A stretch of 64,000 nucleotides of DNA from Azolla caroliniana (taxonomy: Eukaryota > Plantae > Polypodiophyta). The position numbers and the translations under genes are program-made. The notes beneath the pieces were generated by a model. It ran no database searches, was not told the DNA's origin, and saw only the letters and a list, made by a program, of their open reading frames with translations. The stretch lies in assembly GCA_043228905.1 (NCBI GenBank), contig JBHGNT010000013.1:16306001-16370000 (forward strand). Reading direction: 5' to 3'. Of the stretch, positions 48,633 through 64,000 are shown piece by piece; the first letter of the stretch is position 1, and the number at the start of each line of letters is the position of its first letter.

Positions 48633-51600
48633 AGTTGGATGGTTAGGCTCGTGGCTGATGGGTGAGGACGGCTGGCTATGGCGAACTTGAGCTTTGTGAT
48701 AGGCTGGAGAAGAGGGTGAGGGAGGGGAGCCATGAGAGCGATGAGAGTTAGAAGGTTGGTTTCTGTACTGTGCAAAAAACCTTCTATTTCCTTCTTTTTG
48801 TGACCCAGGGTTCCTTGGTCGGTGAGCCATCGTGGTGCCGTGTGTTCTTGGTCTAGAAGTCTGTGCATGCCTTAAGTCCTTTTAATAGCGTCACTATCGT
48901 CTCTTTTTCTTTTTTTTCGTAACAGTTACATACACTATTCTTTTTACACTATAGTACAAATGGAGCCCCATACTTACTCCGTGGATTTCCCAGCTTTGTC
49001 CTGTCCGGCGAGGAACGGGTTAGGTGGCGTAGGTCCTAGATAAGGTTTAAGGCGAAACCCATTCACTTTTTGCTGTAACACTTCTCCGGCCAACGTGCCA
49101 AGTTGAAACGTACCCTGTTCCGCTCCCACTATCTAGTACGGGCCTTTGCAGGGGAATCTTAATTTTCCTGGCATATGCCCCATGCGTGTTTGGAAAACTA
49201 ATACCGCTTTCCCAACCGTAAAATCTTTTTCCCGTGCATGCCGGTGTCGGTCCACGAATGCTTTACGCCGCCTCTATTCTTGCTCCAATATGGCCATACT
49301 GCGTAACCGTGTTTCGCCTAGCTCCAACAGTTGTTGTAGCCGTATTTGCTCAGATTTGCCCTCTGGTAGCCGGGCTCGTACTTGAATTCACAGACTGGGT
49401 ACTTGGAATTCGACTGGCATCACGACCTCTAGCCCAAATGCTAGCATGAAAGGCATTGATTGTATGTTGTTCTTATAGCTGGTACGATATGCCCATAACG
49501 CGCTGTGCAATTTGGTATCCCAATCCGTTCTGTTCTCATTGACTATCTTTTTGAGGATAGTTTGTAGGGTTTTGTTTGTGGATTCTGCCAAGCCATTTGC
49601 CTGTGGGTAATACGACATACTTTTTTTGTGAACCATAGCGTAATGTTGGGTCAGTTCACTGATGACCATATTCAGAAAGTGACTCCCTTGGTCACTACTG
49701 AGCTCGATAGGGCAACCGAAGCGACACCAGATGTGTTCGTAAAGGAATTTCGTCGTGATTGCCGTGGTATTCTTACGTAGTGGTTTCGCTTCTACCCACT
49801 TGGTACAGTAATCCGTGGCCACCAGGATATACTTATTGCCTGTTCGAGCGGCCGCTGGGGTAAAGGGTCCCACAAAATCTAGCCCCCACTTTTGGAAAGG
49901 ATCTAGTGGCAACACTGGTTGGTGTGGCATTCTCGCAACTTCCGTGGGTTGGCCCAGTCGTTGACATAAATCGCACTATCTACAATATTCATACACATCC
50001 TTTTGCGTAGTCGGCCACCAAAATCCCGCTTGCTAGATTTTTTGGGCCGTAACATCGCCCGCGTAATGTCCTCTCGCCGTACCATAGTGGGCTTCCCGTA
50101 AAACCGTGGCCTTCTCATCTTGCCGTATTCCGCGCCTCTAGATGCTGTCACTGCCTTTGTGGTATAGGATGTCTTCTACTAAGCAGAAATTTCGACTCCG
50201 TACGACCAACCGTTTTTTCTCGTTCACCCGTAATTGGGGTGGCGGTAACCCCGTGGTCAGGAAGTAGGTCATTTCCATCAGCCACCGATCCGGAAAGGTC
50301 TTTTCCATTCGTTCTGCTAGAGTTTCTACATGCAGAATGTCCGCATTCGGAAAGTCGTTGTCATCCTTTTGCGCCGTTTCTCCATTATCTAGTCTGCTCA
50401 AGAAATCTGCCACCACGTGTTGCGTACCCGGTCGGTGCTGAATTACAATGTCGAATTCTTGGAGCAACAACATCCATCTAGCCAATTTCCTCGTTAGCGC
50501 TTGTTTCTCTACCAAATATAGCAATGTTGAATGATCCACGTGAAACGTGAATTTCCACCCTTGCAGATAATGCCGAAACTTATTGATGATGTATATCATA
50601 CCCAACGCTTCATGTTCAGTTGTGGAATAGTTACGCTCAACCGTTGATAGTTTCCGACTAGCGTAGTACACTGGTCGGTACCAATTCGGCTCTGTGAGCT
50701 GCATTAGCGCACTACCTATATCTATGTCCGAGGCATCCATGAACACGTGGAATGGTTTTGCCCAGACTGGTGGCTGTACGACGGGTGCCTGCGTTAGCAT
50801 TATCTTTAGCGCATCATACGCCTTCTCTTCCGTTGCTGTCCATTTGAAAGGAGTACGATGAACGACGACATGTAATGGTGTGGCGAAGTCCGCTAAATAG
50901 TGTACCATCCGACTGTGCCATCGTATTTGTCCCAGAAACCGGCTGAGTGCTTTCACATTTGTCGGTGTGGTCGCGTGAGCAATCGTGGAGATTTTGTTCG
51001 GATCGACCACTATCCCTTCCTTGTTGACTATGTGGCCGAGTAGAGCCCTGCTGGTAACGCCGAACGCGCATTTGGCGGGATTTAGGCTTAAGCACGCGGT
51101 TCGACAACGCTCCAGGCAAAGCTGTAGATGCGAAAAATGGTCGGCTGTTGTCCCATATACCGCAAAATCATCTAAAAAGACATGCATGAAGGCTGGTATA
51201 TATTCCCCAAAAATCTCCGTGACTGTCTGTTGAAATGTAGCCGGCGCCGTCTTTAGCCCGAACATCATGACGATTGCGACATAGACGCCCTAGTCCGTGA
51301 CAAACGCCGTCTTCTCTTGGTTGTCGGGGTGCATGCGTACTTGATTGTACCCACTGAAGCCATCTAAAAAGCTGTACATGTCATGCCCTGTGACGGCGTC
51401 CAAGACGCTATAAGTGAACGGTAAAGGGAATGCGTCAGTAATGGTTACGACGTTCAATTTCCGGTAGTTCACGTATTTTTCCATTTTTCTTTGGGACGAC
51501 TACTATCGGGCTTAACCATGTACCTTGTTTGATTGGTCGAATGAATCTGGCCTTAAGCAGTTTGTCAGTTTCTTCTTTTACGCGAGCCGCGTAGTTTGGG

Positions 51601-53036
51601 TTCATGCGGTATCGACGCTGTTGGATTGGTTTTGCATCGGTCGCTAAATTGATCTTATGTTGATAGAACTTCGGATCCAACCCCTTCATGTCCTCGTGGG
51701 ACCAGGCGAACACATATTTATACTTCTTGAGTAGTGCTATCATCGCGTCTCTCTGATCCGGCAGTAATTCTTTTGCGATGGAGAGGAATCGGGGTTCTGA
51801 CGCCGTACCCACGTTTACTTCTTCTAGGCTGAGGATGTGACTCGTCATGAAATTTCCATTTCCCTCTCGAACGCTGCCCTTGCTCTACTTAGTTCTAATA
51901 TTGACTCCGAGTCTGGTTCGTAAGCCTCGTTGTGGAGCGTAGCGGGCGTGGCGTATTCTGTTGCGGCTTCTATGATGTCGATTTCGAATAGTGGAATGAT
52001 CCGGGGGTGCTCGTCTAAGTATACTTCTAATTCCATATCATCCACCCCAGCCAACATATTTATATCTTCCGCGTATAACGGTGTGATGCCCTTGGGTTGT
52101 GCCGCCATTTCCTCTGTTGGTACACGAACCTTGGTGCGTTCGCGTCGAAAGTTGATGCACTTATGTTGCTAGCTCTGTTTGATATTCACTGAACGAAGCC
52201 ACGGTCTGCCCAGCAACATAGGATACGCTCCTGGGGTGTCGAGGGCGAGGACCACCGCTGAGACGTCGAAGCGATGTCCTCCAACGATAATGCCTAACTT
52301 GCGTATTAAGCCTAAACGCCGTACGGAGCGGGTATCCGCCATGCGAAGCCAAAATGGGCAAGCTTCTCATTCTGAAACTCCCAATTGTTCGCATGTCTTC
52401 GCGCTGTCGTGCCCTTCGGCTCCAGATCGTTGCGTGAGTCGGGTGGGAACCGCCGAGGTTTTTGACTAGGAGGAAGAGGAATACAACTTAAGGCTAGTTA
52501 TGAATAGTGGAAAGAGAAGTAAGATAGCAATCTCGTGACTCCCACGAGTTTAGTGTAATTAAAACCATATTTAGATTATAAGAGCAATTAGATGGCAAAA
52601 TTCGTGAATCCCACGAATATATTAGATTGATCAATCCTTGTATATTAATCAACAACCATATACATATTTCTCTCCTCCTTATATAAAGATGGAAGAGGCT
52701 AAGCATGGCTTCATGCTTTTTCACCTAAAGTGTCCATGCACACTAAATGTGCATGTGATGCTTTGTCATTTCCTAAATATAGGGCTCATGCACGCTAGAT
52801 GTGCATGAGTCACTTTTAATGTCACGTGTAAATAAAATATTCACACTCTAAAGAATACATGATTTTTACCTTTTAATAAAGGTATGTGTAAATAAAGGTC
52901 TTATACATATTAAATCTATATTTATAACACTAAAGATAAGTTATTACAATGGTAAAGTTGGGGTTTATCTATGTGGAGGTGCATGGTTCAAATCTTGCCC
53001 TATGCACGTGATAAATTCTTTTGATATTTTATTTAT

Positions 53037-56000
53037 CTATTTATATGTATCTAAAATCGGATATATTATTTTATGGTTTTCCACGTAGTGTGTGGAATAC
53101 ACTACGACACTCGCCCCCTCCGAACCCGCACATCCTCCGGTATGTGCCAAAGTTCTCGATTCCCCATATCCGTCTTCACCCAAAGCTTCCTCCGATTCTC
53201 CCCTTATGTCGACTATGAGTTGTAATTCACTTTCTTCGCTTCTCGCATCACCGTGGTCTTCGTCCGATTGCTCCTCGTTGTCGGCCTTGGCTTGGATCAC
53301 ATAGGGTTTGTCGTCGGTCTGCTTCTTGAAAATCTTCACCCGCTTCCCGGCTATAGGCACTCGTAGTATTGTTCCATCCAACTCGGACAGTCGGTACGTT
53401 CCGTTGTCGAAGACTTTCCGAACCTCGTATGGCCCGAACCACCTTTTCGCGAATTTCCGCATCGTTGTATGTTGATGGTCCAAACTACTGTCATAGACGA
53501 TCACCCAGTCTCCTTCTTCAATCCTCCTCGGTCGTAGTCGGTGCTTTGTGTCGAACCGGCTTTTGTTCCTTAAACGTGCTTCTTGTTGTCGGCGTATTAC
53601 TTCCGCTATGTCTGCCGGTCTCCCCTCTAGTTGTCGTATCCGGACCGCTAGTAGTTCTTCCCGGCTCATCTATTCCTTCCACGGTAGCACTGTCCATGTT
53701 GCGATTGCGGTTTCCGTCGGCATTACCGGTGCTTGTCCGGTCATGAGTTCTGCCGGCATGTAACCGGTTATGGAGCTATGCGTCGTCCGATCCGCCCATA
53801 GTGCATACGGAAGCATCTGCGGCCAGTCCTTCACCTTTCCATCGCATGCCTTTGCAAGTGCTTTCACGATCGGACTATGTCCTCGTTCGATTTTCCCGTT
53901 GGCCTCCGGATTGTATGCCGTTGTTAGCGATAACCGAACTCCGTGTTTGGCAAAGAATCCCCTAGCTTTGTCCGAGTCGACTTCTCCCCGGTCCGCAATC
54001 ACTTGTCTTACGCACCCGTACCTACAAAATACTTCCTCCAAAAGAAATTGGCATACCGCGGAACACGTTTTCCTCTGAAGCGCTCGACCTTCTACTTGAT
54101 TCGTGAGATCTTCCCGAGCTAATACCAAGTATTTCTTTTGTCCGATCCCGGTCGGCATGGCCACTATGTCAACCATCCACTTGAAGTTGATTGTTGGTGA
54201 GAATGTCGGATGTAACTCATCTCGATGTCGAACCCCGGAGTAGACTTGACATTTCTCGCAGCTTTCCGTGAACTCCGCGACATCTTTGTACATTTTCTTC
54301 CACCAATATTTTTGCTTGATCTTCACAAATGTTGCCCATGTTCCTCGGTGTCCAGCCCAATCGGATTCGTGAAACTCGGACATTATCCGGTCTTGTTGCT
54401 CTTTTGTCCCGGCTACTCGAAGTGGTATACCATCCGGTCTTTTCGGCGCCCTCCATATTAATCCGTTTTCCAAGAAGAACTTTTGGACTTGCCTCTTCTT
54501 CCTTCGGATCTCGGCTCTTCTTCCTTTATCGTTTGTTGAATCCTCGGCCTCTTGTAACATCTTTCCGATCATCAAGCTTTCTCCCTCGTATTCTTCTTCC
54601 CGGAATTCTCGGATTACGTTTACTCGGCATATGTGCTCCGACGCGAAGTAGTCTTCGGAAACTTCTTCATTATCCGATTCGGTTATGTCGTCTCCGAACC
54701 GAGCCCTTGATAACATATCCGCTACCGCGTTGTCCTTCCCCGAGATGTGTCGAACCTCCGGATTAAGCGACTTGACATATGCAACCCACCTTAGCATAGC
54801 TACATCCGGTATCGTACAACACCGCATCATCCCCAGTATCGGAAGACAATCCGTCTCGATCACCACTTCGGCTCCGATCAAATAATCCCGATCCGATTTT
54901 ATCGCCGACACGACTCCCCATAGTTCTCTTTTGACTTGTGCATATCCACGTTGCCTTTCGTTGAGAACCTTTGCTCTGAATCGGATCGGATACCGCGAAC
55001 CATCCGAGTCGGCTTGATTGATGACCCACCCGATACCGGTTGGACTTGTATCAACCGTTACTATGATCGGTCGGTCATAGCTCGGCTTCTTAAGTGCTTC
55101 CGCCCTCCGAAGTGTCTTCTTCAATTTCTTCATGGCTTTGGTGTGTTCCGGTTTCCATTCGAATTTCTTACCTTTCCGCAACAAGTGGTAGAGCGGGTCC
55201 GCTATATGTGCATAGTGCGGAATCCATATGTGATAGAATGCACATGCACCGAGAAACCTTCGGACTTCGGATGTTGACTCGCATACTTCCTCCATAGCTT
55301 GAATCGCATCGATCTTTGTTGGTGATGGTCTTCGGCCGTAGGGCCCACATAGATGTCCGACCACCAATATTTCTTCTTGCCCGAATGCCGATTTCTCCCC
55401 AGAAAGTGTTAGGTGCACATCTTCTAGCTTTCGCAACACTTTCTCGCAATCATGAATATGGTCGACCACGAACTTTCGGCATCCCCGATCATCCATAGTC
55501 TCATCTTTTTCTTCTACCGCGCATCCTTTCATCGGAATGTCATCGAGGAACGACATCATTATCTCCGGAATGCAGTCTCGAAGCACCTTGTTCATCGCGT
55601 TCATCATATGAGCAACCGAGTTTGTCGCTCCTTGTGGTAGAGTGCACATTCGGACTAATCCTATCAGTGTTCGCATGGTTGTGATGTCTCGGCTCTCCAC
55701 GGCTAGTTGGAATTGGTCATGCCCCGAGTATAGGTCTCCGATGGAGTATATCGCACGACCGGCAAAAGCTTCCGCAAATTCGTCCACTATCGGACCGACT
55801 CCCGAGTTCCGGATTGTGACCTTATTCACCGGTTGCAAGTCTTGGATAAATCGGAGTGACCCATTCTTCTTCGGAACCGTAAACCATCGATTTGAGTACG
55901 GAGCAGTTGATGGCTCTAGAATCCCCATCGCCACCTTCTCCTTGAGCAAGTCAATGACTTTCGGAATATGCGCTCGTGGCACCGGAATCGGCTTCAAGTT

Positions 56001-56702
56001 CCACGGTACATGGTCAATCGTGAAGATCACCATCGGCTCCACTATTCTCGGATCGACGCACCCTATCTCCCTTGATGTAAATGCAAACGCTTTGCCGTGT
56101 TGCTCCAACATCTCGCGAAACCGTTCTTCTTCTTTTTGTAATAGGAACCCACCTCCACCGATCCGAAGTTTCTTCCGGGTCTCATCCGTAAAGGCATGTC
56201 CGATATCCATGGTCTTCCGAAGTGTCGGATCTCCCGAGACTTCTTTCCTCTTTTGTTCGTTATCGGCGGGTAGTGGTCCCGCGGCCGGTTTCACCTTCTT
56301 CTCCACGGTCTTGTATTTCGTACTTACCATTGCTTCTTCTTTGCGGAGCGTATCCGGCTCCATTTTCGCAATGATCTCGTACATCTCGACCGATTCCACT
56401 GGGACTACCCGGTTCCCTTGGCTTTTATCTTCCGCAAGCTCTTCAAGTCGTTGTAGCGTGCTCTCATAGAACACCTCTTCGACTATCCCCACGATTTCTT
56501 CATCTTCTTTTATTATTGATGCCGACCGCAACTTATCCTCCACTTTTCGGTATCCTTTCTTCAATCCTCCGGTTACGGTCATGTACGTAGATGCCACATC
56601 CGGACCGATTCGTACATGTTTTGCTCCGAGATTTTTCTTCCTGTGTGGGGTATTAGGGCTTCTCGGACTATCACTTCCCCACTCCGCAACAGTCCGCTTT
56701 AA
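53037..56702 (-). pseudogene. Element B pol (RT, RNase H, integrase); one in-frame TAG at 53670-53672
   Basis: WFTVPKKNGSLRFIQDLQ, DLYSG, LPQGATNS, FLDD, VDTSPTGIG, H...GHRG...CEKCQ, WMVDIV, ADRGE, YNPEANGKIERGH, WFGPY. The frame is open upstream to the slippery site at 56702. Confidence 0.88.
53110..53121 (-). other. Polypurine tract of element B
   Basis: GGAGGGGGCGAG immediately precedes the 3' LTR on the minus strand. Confidence 0.85.
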
Positions 56703-58741
56703 AAATCCATTCTCACTTGGGACAAGAGTTCCCTCTTGTTCCTTTCGTGATTTGCCGGCACCGTTAGGAATTGGACGGATTTCCCACCGTTTTGGCTCCG
56801 AATTCGCGCAAAAGCCGCACCGCTATCGAGCACCTTCGTCTCCATCCGTGATGCCATGATAAAGGGTTGGCCGAGGATGACGGAATGTGAAACCTCATCT
56901 TGCACGAAGAAATTTTGGTCGATCTCGACATCCCCGATCTTCACCGTCACATCCGGACAAGCCGCAAATAGATCTTCCGTTGCTTTTGTGGCCGCCCGAA
57001 TCTTCCATCCATGGTTGGTGTTAATAGGCCACTTCCCCTTCCGGTAGAACTCCTTGGACATCAAGTTGATCTCCGATCCGTGATCAATCAATGCTAGCAC
57101 AGGTTCTTTGATGTTGCCGATTCGGACCGGAGTCTCCGTAGTCGCGCATGCCCAATGTGGCCTTGTATAGTGGGAGTTCGGAATTTCGTCCTCCACTTCG
57201 GTGTCGTTCATTAAAACGGTGTTCGCATTCACCCTTGGAGCATTTTCCTCCGTACTTTGTCTTTTTCATTTCACGAGATCCACGAGAAGATCGTGGAACT
57301 CCTTCTTTGCTATTCCGAGTAGCTCCTGAAGCGAGAAATCTACCCGGCTATCCAAGATTCTTTCCTCGAACACTCTTTTCAAGTCGGTTTGTTGTTCTAT
57401 GTCCGAGGCGAGCTTGAATGCCGGAGTCGCCTTTTCTTTTCCCTTACCTCCGGAGTTCCAGCTTTCCGGTATCTTCGATGGCCCGACTACATCCTCCGTG
57501 CGTTGTCGTTTCTCGTCCACATACACCTTATGCAATTGACACAGGGCGTATACGCTATTCTTGTCGACAGGGCACTCCCATCCCGTAGCTTCCCGGACGC
57601 CTTCCGCGGTGCTTCGGATCTCGTTGGAGTCGGTTTTCTCGGTGTTTTCGAGAACTTCCGACCAAAAAGACGTCTTTGCTCTCGATGACTCCCCGACACA
57701 TATTCCCGCGGTTGTTGCATAGTTGCTTCTTGCCGCCAATTCCTCCTCGAGCACCTTCTTCATGCCGCCTTTCCGGAAGTTCGGTCGGAGTGGCTTCCGA
57801 GAGTCCATCGAATGAATCCGGTTTCCCTCGTAGTAGATGAGATCCCGCCGTAGCGCCTCCTTATGCTCGTCGCAATCCTTCCGATCGTGTTCGGCGCTAT
57901 CGCACCATATGCACCGTCGGTCCGTATACTTGGAGCTTGTGGGGCGGTCATCCGACTTCTTCACCATCGCGATCTTCAGATTCTCCATCTCCTTCAATAG
58001 TTGCTCCACCGTAGATGCATCAATCCCCTTCTCGGTTGTAGTCTCTCGAGCCCTCAGTTGATGGTCTTCCAATCCGGTTCTCGGTTTCGGAATCGGTTCC
58101 GAAACCCTCTTTTCCTCGTCGGCAAGCCATTGCCCCCTCTTCGTGTATCGCGCGACGATATCCCACACGCTTTCCCATGTTTCGGTGAGGCAGCTCTCCG
58201 TGGTCGTGTCCTCCAAGAGCACTCCGAGATCTTTCCGGTCCCGGACGTCCACGGCTCGCAAGAACATGATCACCTTGTCTGGTACGAGGATAGCTTGATC
58301 TCTCGCGAACAACCTCCCGAACCGGCTTTCGAATGCCGAAAACACATCAACGACCTTCAATCCCTTGTCCGGCGTCTCCACCCAATCTTCGAATCCCCTT
58401 CGCGTCGCCTTGGAGGAATCCTCGATGGCGAACGTCCTCTTTAGCTCTTCTTCAAATGCCTCCCATGTCGGATTTTGTTGTCGTAGCCCATGGATGCTTG
58501 CTTGAAGCCCGTCGGTCGCCACCCGGTTGAAGGACGTCACTTGCAGTCCTTCCGATATTCCGCACCGTAGCATCTCCGCCTTGTAGTCCCGAAGATACCG
58601 CGACACGTCTTTCCCGTTGAATTGCCCGTTTCGTTGCACGAGCCGCTCCACTGATGCCGCTATCTCCGACATCGCGCGTTGTTCTTGTAGCATGCGCTCG
58701 AACATCATCATCATGTTGCTAGCCTCCGGTTGATTTTCCAT
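56699..58741 (-). pseudogene. Element B gag-protease ORF; one in-frame TGA at 57266-57268 (likely CGA>TGA)
   Basis: Gag with zinc knuckle CIWCDSAEHDRKDC. The aspartic protease (LIDHGSEINLM...ILGQPF) is in the same frame after the TGA and ends at TAA 56699. Confidence 0.85.
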
Positions 58742-58758
58742 CTCCTTGCCACCCGGTG

Positions 58759-58776
58759 TTCACGTCGGGTTCACCA
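58759..58776 (-). other. Primer-binding site of element B, complementary to tRNA-Trp
   Basis: The plus strand reads TTCACGTCGGGTTCACCA, matching the 3' 18 nt of plant cytosolic tRNA-Trp(CCA) as I recall it. It lies 4 nt from the 5' LTR. Confidence 0.85.
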
Positions 58777-59627
58777 ACTGTGTCGTGCCCTTCGGCTCCG
58801 GATCGTTGCGTGAGTCGGGTGGGAACCGCCGAGGTTTTTGACTAGGAGGAAGAGGAATACAACTTAAGGCTAGTTATGAATAGTGGAAAGAGAAGTAAGA
58901 TAGCAATCTCGTGACTCCCACGAGTTTAGTGTAATTAAAACCATATTTAGATTATAAGAGCAATTAGATGGCAAAATTCGTGAATCCCACGAATATATTA
59001 GATTGATCAATCCTTGTATATTAATCAACAACCATATACATATTTCTCTCCTCCTTATATAAAGATGGAAGAGGCTAAGCATGGCTTCATGCTTTTTCAC
59101 CTAAAGTGTCCATGCACACTAAATGTGCATGTGATGCTTTGTCATTTCCTAAATATAGGGCTCATGCACGCTAGATGTGCATGAGTCACTTTTAATGTCA
59201 CGTGTAAATAAAATATTCACACTCTAAAGAATACATGATTTTTACCTTTTAATAAAGGTATGTGTAAATAAAGGTCTTATACATATTAAATCTATATTTA
59301 TAACACTAAAGATAAGTTATTACAATGGTAAAGTTGGGGTTTATCTACGTGGAGGTGCATGGTTCAAATCTTGCCCTATGCACGTGATAAATTCTTTTGA
59401 TATTTTATTTATCTATTTATATGTATCTAAAATCGGATATATTATTTTATGGTTTTCCACGTAGTGTGTGGAATACACTACGACAACGCTAATTACATTG
59501 ACGCCACAGCCGCCGTTGATTATGCATCCTGTGATTTCTTGACCGTGTAATATCAACTTAATAGCCGGATTGTGGTGATCCACCACTGATGGTCCGGCGC
59601 TGATGTCCATAAAATTGGCGGAGACGC

Positions 59628-60477: not shown

Positions 60478-63400
60478 TGTTACTTGGGCGGGACCACAAC
60501 GGTCTTGGACTAGGGAGTACTCAAGGGATAGAAAAGACCCGAGGTTTGCTTTACGACAATACTACTTCTTGACCCCTTCTCGAGCAAGATCTCGTTGCCC
60601 TTTGTTTTGTGAGGCCAGTGGCTCTCTTTGATCACGACTCGTCGACCTTTCAAGATCACCGCACAAACCAAGTGATCAAACGGGTACAAGCAAGATGAGC
60701 ACGCAAGATGAACGCACAAGGGGACGATAACACAAACACGAATGCCTGTACGTCTTTATGAGGAGGAGAGGTGCATAGGCACGCCCGAACGCTCCCTCGT
60801 CACAAGACGTCGACTGTATGAGGAAGACACAAAACACATGCACAAATGCTCGTACGCCTTTATGAGGAGATGCGGGCACGCCCGAAACACTCCCTCGTCA
60901 CGAGATGGCCGAACGTACAAGGAAGACACAAACACACGCACAAAATGCTCGTACGCCTTTATGAGGAGAGGTGCATGGGCAAGCCCAAAACGGTCCCTCG
61001 TCACGAGACGGCCGAACGTACGAGGAAGACACAAACACACTCACAAAATGCTTGTACGCCTTTATGAGGAGGAGAGGTGCATGGGCACGCCCGAAACGAT
61101 CCCTCGTCACGAGACGGCCGAACGTACAAGGAAGACACAAACACATGCACAAATGCTCGTATGTCTTTATGAGGAGGAGAGGTGCATGGGCACGCCCGAA
61201 TGGTCCCTTGTCACAAGACGGCCGAACGTACAAGGAAGACACAAACACACACACAAATGCTCCTACGTCTTTATGAGGAGGAGAGGTGCATGGGCACGCC
61301 CGAAACGCTCCCTCGTCACAAGACGGCCGAACGTACAAGGAAGACATGAACAAAGAAAGAAGGAGAGAAAGAAACACGAATGATATTGACCAAAGAGACA
61401 AATACGTGTTCGATTCCAACGCAAGAGGACCCTTTATAAAATAGGATTTGATTAGAATGGCAACTTATAGTTAACCACAAGCTCAATCAAAACATAAATA
61501 CTAAATGCCCTTAAAGACAAGAGCAAATCCGAACACGACGAAGATGAACACACGAGCATCACCGAAATGCCAATCCCAACGAACCACGACCACCCGAATG
61601 GCGAGCACACGGGCTCCCAACGACGAACGGGGCGGAGCAACGTCGAACCAATGAAGCCTTGGCTCACGAGCACTTCGAGTGCCGACGCGAAGAAGATGAG
61701 CACGTGGTGATTGGGGGATGAAGGGGTATGATATGAATAGAAGTGGTGAATAAGAAGATGAAGAGCTCTGAAAGAAAAATAGCGATAGTCTCCTCCTCCC
61801 ATAACGTCCTCCTAAATGAGCCCCCTCGACCTCCTTTTATAGGAACAAAAGAAAGGGGGGTTGCCAATTTTGTCTTCAATGAAAAAGGAATAAAATTCCT
61901 TAAATAACGCTACACTATAAGACTAGACTTGAACCTTGCACCTCTAGGTAGTAGTCAATGTGACTATCCACTAACCCACTAACTCTCTCTTATGTAATAT
62001 ATAATTCTATCTCTATAAATTCTTAGCCTGTCTCTCCACTACATTTTATCTCTCTTCTCTCTTACTTTTTGCACGGGCTTCTATGCATCCTTTCCAGCCT
62101 TTCTTTTCCCTTTTATTTTGCATATGCACAACTAATCACTTTTGTGTGCACACACATTGCACATGCACATTTTTTATCCCCCCCTTTCGCCTATTTTCCC
62201 ACTCTTGAGCACGCCACATCACGACATCCACCCCCACCAAACCACACATCCTCCGGTATGTGCCAAGAATGGCGGGCTGAGGGTGGTCAATAATTCATTT
62301 CCTCCTCCTCATTGACCCTGTGGCTTGTTGTTTGTTCGCCTTTATCTTCGTCAAGGTCATCGAGGTTTGGCTCCCTGTCGTGTCGCTTTTCGAAGATTTT
62401 GACCTGTCATGTGGTTATTGGTACTGCTAGCTTAGTCCCATCGAGTTCAGCGAGATGGTAGGGAGCATTATGGTTTGCACTCATTACCACGTACGGCCCG
62501 AACCATCGCTTTGCGAATTTCTGCATTGAGCTATGTTGATTGTCGATACTACTATCATATACAATCACCTAGTCTCCTTCTTCGATCTTCTGAGGGCGTA
62601 GTCGGTCTGTCTTGTCGAATCGGGCTTTGTTACTTAGCCTAGCCGCTTCTAACCTATCCTTTTCCAACTCCAAGTCTTCGGGTCTTCTCTCAAGTTGCCT
62701 TATCCTTGTGGCTAGAAGCTCTTCTCGACTCATCTCGTTTTCCCACGACATCGCTACCCATGAAGCGATCGTGTGTTCAATGGGCATCACCGGCTTTTGT
62801 CCGTACATGAGTTCAGCTGGCATGAAACCTGTAACTGAGCTATGAGTTGTTTTGTTGGCCCACAAGGCATAAGGTAGTAACCGAGGCCAATTCCCGACTC
62901 GCCCATCACAAGCCCTAACAATGGCTTTTACGATAGGCTCGTGTCCGCATTCTATCTTTCCATTAGCTTCCGAGTTATAAGCGGCCGTGAGAGAGAGCTT
63001 CACTCCAAGTCGGTCAAAGAGCTTTGTAGCTTTGTGAGCGTTCAGCTCTCCTCTGTCGGCCACTATCTTTCTCACACATCCGTACTGGCAGATGATATCC
63101 TCAAGTAAGAATTTACACACCCCTGCCGTCGTTTTGTTTGCTAAGGCTCACCCTTCTACTTGGTTTGTTAGGTCTTCTCTTGCTAGCACCAAATATTTCA
63201 TTTGGCCCACTCCCATCAGCATCGAAACCAAATCCACCATCCATTTGAAGTGTATGATGAGTGGGTAGGTCGGGTGCAACTCGTCCCTATGGCGTACTTC
63301 TCCTTTAACTTCTCAAATGTTGCCCACGTTCCTCTATGGCCCGCCCAAGGACTCTCGTGGAGCTCAGACACCAATGTTGTTTGGTCTTCTTCCTTTATGA

Positions 63401-64000
63401 CCACTCGTTGTGGTGTCCCCATCCTTCTCTTCGGGTGCCTCCAGAGGAATCCCCCTCGTAGGAAGTACTTGTACGCTTTCTTTCAGACTCTCTGTGCTTC
63501 CTGCTTCGACCATGAACTATCCACCGTCATTGAGCTTAAGAACTTGCCAATGTGTAGCCACTCCCCTTTGTATTCACTTTCGTTGAAGGCGTGGAGTACT
63601 TGCACATCTTGATCATCTATAGATGCTTGGGCCATCTTAAAGAAGTCAAGAGCGACATCCTCATCTTCAAACACCATGTCGCTTTCGCCCTTGAATCTTG
63701 CCTTGGATAGCATATCTGCCATGGCATTGTTCTTCCCTGAAATGTGGTGAATCTCTGGGTTCATGGATTTGATGTAAGCAATCCACCTTAGCATAGCTAG
63801 GTCAGGTGTTGCACATCCTGAAACCATCCCTAGGATTGGAAGGCAATACGTCTCTATTACCACCTCTGACCCGATTAGGTAATCTTTATCCGCCTTTACT
63901 GCGGACACAATACCCCAAAGCTCATGTTTTACTTGGGCATATCCTCGTTGTCGCTTGCTTAAGACCTTGGCTCCAAACCGGATGGCGTAGCGTGTACCAT
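60478..64000 (-). mobile_element. Element C: Ty3/gypsy relative of B; ~1.75-kb 3' LTR plus decayed IN/RNase H, continuing past the window end
   Basis: LTR ~60478-62226 (left edge approximate) and PPT GGTGGGGGTGGA at 62227-62238. Peptides HESPWAGHRGTWATF, VADRGEL, EANGKIE.GH, LPYALWA and LPILGM...LRWIAY parallel element B, with frameshifts and deletions. Confidence 0.88.
60727..61346. repeat. Minisatellite of about 6 units of 99-106 bp inside the element C LTR
   Basis: GAAGAC anchors at 60823, 60922, 61025, 61131, 61235 and 61340. The whole unit is conserved. Confidence 0.92.

Follow-up and report, generated by a model that had tools for sequence, protein, structure and literature searches.

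The protease/reverse transcriptase boundary of a Ty3/gypsy retrotransposon in Azolla caroliniana carries what is very probably a programmed -1 ribosomal frameshifting cassette, a reading to which we assign a probability of about 0.92 from the element's sequence and that of its relatives. This element, here called element B, occupies the minus strand at 52405-59485 (7081 bp) of the window, the 64,000-nucleotide stretch of DNA that was analyzed (contig JBHGNT010000013.1, positions 16,306,001 to 16,370,000). Most ribosomes would terminate at the stop codon of the gag-protease (gag-PR) frame and release Gag-PR, while a minority would pause on an H-type pseudoknot, where the Asp tRNA would move one base back from GAU to GGA and the Phe tRNA from UUU to UUU, and translation would run on to produce Gag-PR-RT-RH-INT. 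Gag-PR would be abundant and Gag-PR-Pol rare, as proposed in a preliminary description of this DNA; the protease would be made one-to-one with Gag, and rationing would be limited to RT and integrase. With less confidence, we suggest that a derived sub-lineage uses the same pseudoknot with a 1-nt shorter spacer and the site AG_GUU_UUU to slip two bases. The features of element B and of a neighboring element are:

58781..59485, minus strand: 5' LTR, 705 nt, TG...CA, 99.7% identical to the 3' LTR
58759..58776, minus strand: primer binding site, complementary to the 3' end of tRNA-Trp
56699..58741, minus strand: gag-protease open reading frame, C-terminus Met-Asp-Phe-stop (Pfam DUF4100, weak, and Asp_protease_2)
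56861..57130, minus strand: aspartic protease domain, active-site motif DHG (Pfam E 6e-4, below the curated cut-off)
56702..56708, minus strand: slippery heptamer G_GAU_UUU, in frame with gag-PR (sequence and conservation)
56699..56701, minus strand: gag-PR stop codon, directly 3' of the heptamer (sequence)
56686..56696, minus strand: stem 1, 5' strand, conserved core 56695-56688
56677..56682, minus strand: stem 2, 5' strand, within the stem 1 loop (pairing and partner test)
56664..56674, minus strand: stem 1, 3' strand, conserved core 56672-56665
56645..56650, minus strand: stem 2, 3' strand, 13 nt past stem 1 (pairing and partner test)
53037..56822, minus strand: pol frame (-1) with linker, RT, RNase H and integrase (open reading frame and Pfam)
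about 55877-55353, 55157-54780 and 54404-53907, minus strand: RT, RNase H and integrase, the last with an additional C-terminal part (Pfam)
53110..53127, minus strand: purine-rich tract, likely the polypurine tract, just before the 3' LTR
52405..53109, minus strand: 3' LTR, 705 nt
62329-64000, minus strand: decayed element of a second family, pol 50-65% identical, same cassette

The two 705-nt LTRs of element B differ at two positions, and the element is flanked by GCGT (5') and GCGC (3'), which make up a 4-bp target duplication of the NCGN type, mismatched at one position. Perfect 4-bp NCGN duplications flank three of eight fetched copies of the element B family (two lack an LTR pair and three are ambiguous) and four of ten copies of a third family described below. 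Fourteen primer binding site bases combined with the T-loop motif gave 63 genome matches, and all four loci examined are tRNA-Trp(CCA) genes, none of them taken from the clusters at C8:17796787-17823370 (spacing about 1.2 kb), C16:4989496-5105656 and C5:10105609-10112200, where matches to the tRNA-Trp 3' pattern probably represent tandem tRNA-Trp gene arrays. The tRNA-Trp primer binding site, the NCGN duplication and the domain order GAG-PROT-RT-RH-INT are hallmarks by which element B would be classed as a Phygy-type Ty3/gypsy element. A Pfam scan (E 0.01) detected neither an extra RNase H nor a chromodomain. All of these traits are shared with Phygy in REXdb, where the ORF organization of this lineage is given as "not determined" (PMC6317226). 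The element B family (about 7.05 kb) is shorter than the range of 7656-9968 bp listed there, and the third family measures about 7.9 kb. The closest named proteins are models from Physcomitrium patens.

This copy of element B contains an in-frame TGA between gag and PR (57268-57266), found in two of 30 family loci including this one, and an in-frame TAG in integrase (53672-53670). Because of these two stops the copy is defective, and the argument therefore rests on the family. The stop of the pol frame lies about 24 codons inside the 3' LTR (53037-53140; compare 59416-59517, minus strand). The protease triad, D-H-G at 57085-57077 (minus strand), is invariant in 18 of 18 aligned homologs, while the usual aspartic protease triad is D-T/S-G. 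Such a triad might lower protease activity, as expected if protease is made one-to-one with Gag.

The neighboring element led to the second family, whose protease is about 60% identical to that of element B. The same family and cassette are present at L031:2329-6392, and in nine of 30 second-family copies TTA replaces the stop codon after the heptamer. The window also contains a more distant RT-RNase H-integrase element at 49400-51457 (minus strand), 25% identical to element B pol, and a repeat of about 104 nt in six degenerate copies at 60684-61302.

The preliminary description placed pol exactly in frame -1 with respect to gag-PR, open from 56702. The offset holds, while the frame already opens at 56822, giving a 121-nt overlap ahead of the gag-PR stop. 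Pol has the -1 offset in 28 of the 30 best genomic copies of the element B family and in 28 of 30 of the second family, a total of 56 of 60 copies in a sample of top matches from each search that leans to the query. The refuting condition named earlier, PR and RT in one frame in most copies, does not hold in this sample. Among 80 metagenome loci, most of them from one series of assemblies, 18 lack RT, and the other 62 have pol in the -1 frame (59) or the +1 frame (three), with none in frame. Of the three +1 loci, L073 has decayed and gained indels later on, and the other two, L119 and L128, are taken up below. In seven loci of three families pol opens just 10 nt ahead of the stop, which leaves no other place to shift and thereby pins the site. 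Two other candidates in the 121-nt overlap of the element B family, G_GCU_UUU and C_CAA_AAC, are ruled out by these families. Downstream, most representatives have no stop in the pol frame for several hundred codons starting at the heptamer, and the 110 pol codons that follow the site show a dN/dS of 0.25-0.42 (three pairs).

The sequence ATG GAT TTT TAA at 56710-56699 (minus strand) contains the heptamer at 56708-56702, exactly where it was first reported. When GAC, TTC and any first base were permitted, the site was found in 73 of 80 metagenome loci (GGATTTT in 62, GGATTTC in four, GGGTTTT in two, GGTTTTT in two and other forms in three); the remaining seven are broken or chimeric. Clustering at 88% gave 35 family representatives, with L077 dropped as truncated. 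The first G is kept in all 35 (background 0.28), the Asp codon is GAT in 29 of 29 (background 0.60) and the Phe codon is TTT in 32 of 35 (background 0.49), counts that are not independent draws because the families are related. The codon ahead of the site takes 12 forms, every one ending in G, showing that the constraint acts on the nucleotide. Conservation of the heptamer, proposed earlier as a check by family alignment, was thus found at silent and variable positions alike. L204, a locus outside the alignment and 53% identical, has the same heptamer, stop codon, -1 frame and hairpin spacing. G_GAU_UUU does not match the strict X_XXY_YYZ form; it is a functional -1 site tested in wheat-germ extract, at which only the A-site tRNA re-pairs fully (PMC4737148).

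The 11-bp stem 1 with three G-U pairs described earlier is present in element B; across families only its inner 8 bp are conserved and the outer three pairs are family-specific. In the 35-row alignment the core is paired in 269 of 280 cells, while the outer pairs fail in 14-22 of 35 rows, and slid controls reach 24-45% pairing against 83%. The stem 1 hairpin is the minimum free energy fold (-15.3 kcal/mol), with a z-score of -4.97 in 42 nt and only -1.02 in 72 nt. The predicted pseudoknot has a stacking score of -32.5, the best of its geometry in the 5671-nt interior, the next independent site scoring -23.3. In element B the spacer measures 5 nt to the 11-bp stem and 6 nt to the conserved core, within the range of 5-9 nt given for -1 frameshifting (PMC7618472). 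Mutual information (MI-APC) without an assumed structure ranked two stem 1 pairs as the best of 1176 column pairs. On a protein tree, nine stem 1 co-changes were counted against a mean of 3.25 over re-pairings, with 38 of 40320 re-pairings as high; the first tree omitted 10 of the 35 representatives.

The pairing of GUGGGG (56682-56677) with CCCCAC (56650-56645) is likewise present as previously described. All 35 families have a stem 2 complement of 4-8 bp located 10-15 nt past stem 1, and changes on both sides were seen in L120 (GCGAGA/UCUCGC), L119 (UGAGGG/CCCUCA), L132 (ACAGGG/CCCUGU) and L139 (GCAGGGA/UCCUUGC). Own partners scored better than permuted ones both in the 35 families (-12.7 versus -10.7, 0/20000) and in 18 deep lineages (-12.5 versus -10.0, 0/100000), in tests that chose the best helix per family, corrected for kinship only partly and are less strict than the stem 1 test. 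The own downstream segment is the best partner in only six of 35 families, because many families share a G-run and a C-run. Stem 2 is weak in the second family of this genome (5 bp including one G-U), in L129 and in L125. Covariation was thus found for both stems, for stem 2 by the weaker test, and together with the conserved heptamer it is what programmed frameshifting predicts.

One alternative is that splicing excises the junction, so that Gag-PR runs in frame into RT. Ogre elements have an intron at the same boundary (PMC6317226), and PR is joined to RT in gene models from Physcomitrium, Adiantum and Riccia in the databases. However, these joins differ from one model to another, the pol frame is open from the heptamer on, and the linker is under coding constraint. 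The upstream GTs that are kept best (in 34, 34 and 30 of 35) belong to PR codons for Val and are followed by unconstrained bases at +3 to +6, GTRA near the site is missing in 24 of 35, and the conservation of the heptamer would be left unexplained. We therefore regard splicing as very unlikely. Over the junction, the depth of polyA reads taken from another organism, most of them no more than 90-95% alike, is about 0-1x. In three of three stranded polyA runs from one study, reads from a related element in another organism cover gag (57200-58800) at about 6-18x in sense orientation and the region from about 57200 on at 0-3x, a drop that could reflect either a truncated copy or a gag-only transcript.

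Of 120 homologous proteins in the databases, 93 terminate no more than 40 residues past PR. The C-terminus is D/G-F-stop in 48 of them, D/G-F plus five residues in 35 and V-F-x-stop in two, 85 in all; entries named Physcomitrium, Riccia and Adiantum are among the proteins with such endings. In a more distant set, the same endings occur in 26 of 64 representatives with the PR end covered, down to 36% identity. A further 24 of the 120 homologs continue past PR, many of them gene models whose joins disagree. PR and RT share one chain in four Riccia models 1465-1920 residues long, which, going by the protein entries, we take to be joins made by gene predictors.

About equally improbable is separate synthesis of Pol, through internal initiation or through re-initiation past the gag-PR stop, with the conserved structure serving that process or packaging. 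An Rfam scan of the junction gave as its sole match IRES_Tobamo just downstream, at 17.4 bits, below the threshold of 50 (E 2.6, chance level), and the families with pol in the +1/-2 frame have an in-frame ATG two or five codons upstream of the site. Yet the overlap contains no pol-frame ATG in any of the 33 -1 families, the first one downstream lies 2-110 codons after the site, and separate synthesis would not explain the fixed distance from heptamer to stem. Least probable of all is polymerase slippage that adds or drops a base in some transcripts: most families do have 4-6 T at the site, but the run is short, GGATTTC variants with three T (four of 73 loci) retain the cassette, and a covarying pseudoknot at ribosome distance would not be needed.

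Programmed -1 frameshifting, the favored reading for the element B family, does not fit two loci, L119 and L128, where gag-PR and pol are both long and open, pol lies in the +1 (equivalently -2) frame and the -1 frame closes after two and seven codons. The site in this third family is AG_GUU_UUU, and the conserved stem begins 1 nt nearer than in the -1 families. The junctions and loci are:

L119:2836-2900 and L128:2498-2560: third-family junctions
L142-L181 and L190-L199: third-family loci of the genome studied here

In this genome, pol is in the +1/-2 frame in 35 of 37 distinct third-family places (40 loci less three duplicate places), so the offset is no assembly error. L119 and L128 form one branch among the -1 families (support 100/100; 100/99). 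We infer that this branch is derived, since the trees are midpoint-rooted only. L129 (G_GUU_UUC, pol in -1) was considered as a step toward this group and rejected, as it does not group with L119 and L128 in the tree. Four of ten fetched third-family copies have both open reading frames uninterrupted and LTRs 99.8-100% identical, and by these signs the family is recently active. Pol dN/dS between L119 and L128 is 0.09-0.25, indicating that Pol is used.

AG_GUU_UUU is the -2/-1 site of PRRSV (PMC7618472), and a spacer shorter by 1-2 nt favors -2 shifting (PMC3458567). The change from GAU to GUU would let the A-site tRNA-Phe re-pair two bases back. A -2 shift in the third family is, in our judgment, reasonably probable, and the family is likely a natural switch from -1 to -2. 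Unlike PRRSV nsp2TF, where the identical site has no downstream RNA structure and needs proteins, the third family keeps the inherited pseudoknot with a shorter spacer.

A +1 shift, for example of tRNA-Phe from UUU to UUG or UUU, is a less likely but serious alternative for this family. Pol is formally in the +1 frame, both split-frame plant element types of a 2003 survey had pol in +1 as summarized in PMC5009743, and six T in L128 and in some third-family copies would permit re-pairing from UUU to UUU. Most copies, however, have UUU_GAC, where re-pairing on UUG would be poor, while the GAU-to-GUU change is what A-site -2 re-pairing requires, the site is identical to that of PRRSV (PMC7618472) and the spacer is shortened in the way that -2 shifting favors (PMC3458567). 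Re-initiation at the in-frame ATG two or five codons upstream of the site is another rival in this family, yet 11 of 33 -1 families likewise have a +1-frame ATG no more than six codons upstream, which is useless to them. A protein of the liverwort Calypogeia fissa (P0246), with a protease 40% identical, ends in V-F-Y-stop like the family with the likely -2 shift; judged from this protein end, it could belong to a second or older -2 group.

The heptamer of Rous sarcoma virus (RSV) is A_AAU_UUA, and element B differs from alpharetroviruses in having G_GAU_UUU and in being a plant retrotransposon without env. The alpharetroviruses RSV and MAV likewise have protease in frame and equimolar with Gag (PMC3185560) and a -1 shift into pol (PMC5009743), and the specific activity of their protease is low (PMC3185560). 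This shared layout is most likely convergent. The beta- and deltaretroviruses MMTV and HTLV-1 also have a pro-pol frameshift, with an additional gag/pro shift, whereas gag and PR of element B form one open reading frame. RNA2 of pea enation mosaic virus, an umbravirus, shares the heptamer, an important stop close by, about 5 nt of spacer and the use of plant ribosomes (PMC4737148), yet its stimulator is a long hairpin with long-distance pairing in place of the compact H-type pseudoknot predicted for element B. In the Tat clade, PROT and RT are split by an intron (Ogre) or a single stop codon (Retand) (PMC6317226), in contrast to the overlapping frames of Phygy-type elements. The REXdb table gives no gypsy lineage with a PROT/RT overlap, its overlaps being only GAG/PROT (PMC6317226).

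Judging from the homologs, the lineage with this cassette spans mosses, liverworts and ferns. A pattern search gave 87 matches in viral contigs, none of them a relative, and 66 in genome contigs with one relative, L204. The latter is a Phygy-type retrotransposon on a contig of a cyanobacterial metagenome-assembled genome, and this contig is probably eukaryotic contamination.

The mechanism of -1 frameshifting is itself well known; what is new here is a lineage-wide cassette at the PR/RT boundary. We found no description of it in the literature, in a search whose scope excluded most subscription journals, Repbase and the per-element supplements of REXdb. The passages on plant LTR elements in one review name only +1-frame ones, citing the 2003 survey (Gao et al. 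2003, PMC1370496, via PMC5009743). In the portions of the two further papers that were covered, the word "frameshift" is absent from PMC7466625 on P. patens elements and PMC11963269 mentions frameshifts merely as a filter.

Taken more broadly, we lean toward the view that all Phygy-type elements of seed-free plants ration RT and integrase by one ancient pseudoknot cassette, and that one sub-lineage switched from -1 to -2 by way of GUU in place of GAU and a spacer shortened by 1 nt. If true, an active mobile element would possess a natural -2 frameshift driven by RNA structure that has converged on the arterivirus motif, and the mRNA-tension model would be borne out in nature. For a whole lineage, the present analysis supplies a defined -1 cassette, backed by covariation and placed at the unusual boundary between protease and RT, and non-chromovirus lineages appear to reach the split between Gag-PR and Pol in three ways: by frameshift, stop codon or intron. 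A matched natural pair that shares one pseudoknot, one cassette -1 and the other likely -2, makes it testable whether spacer length sets the direction of slippage in nature. For these elements themselves, the cassette would explain the introns invented by gene predictors and may serve as a rule to tell intact from broken copies.
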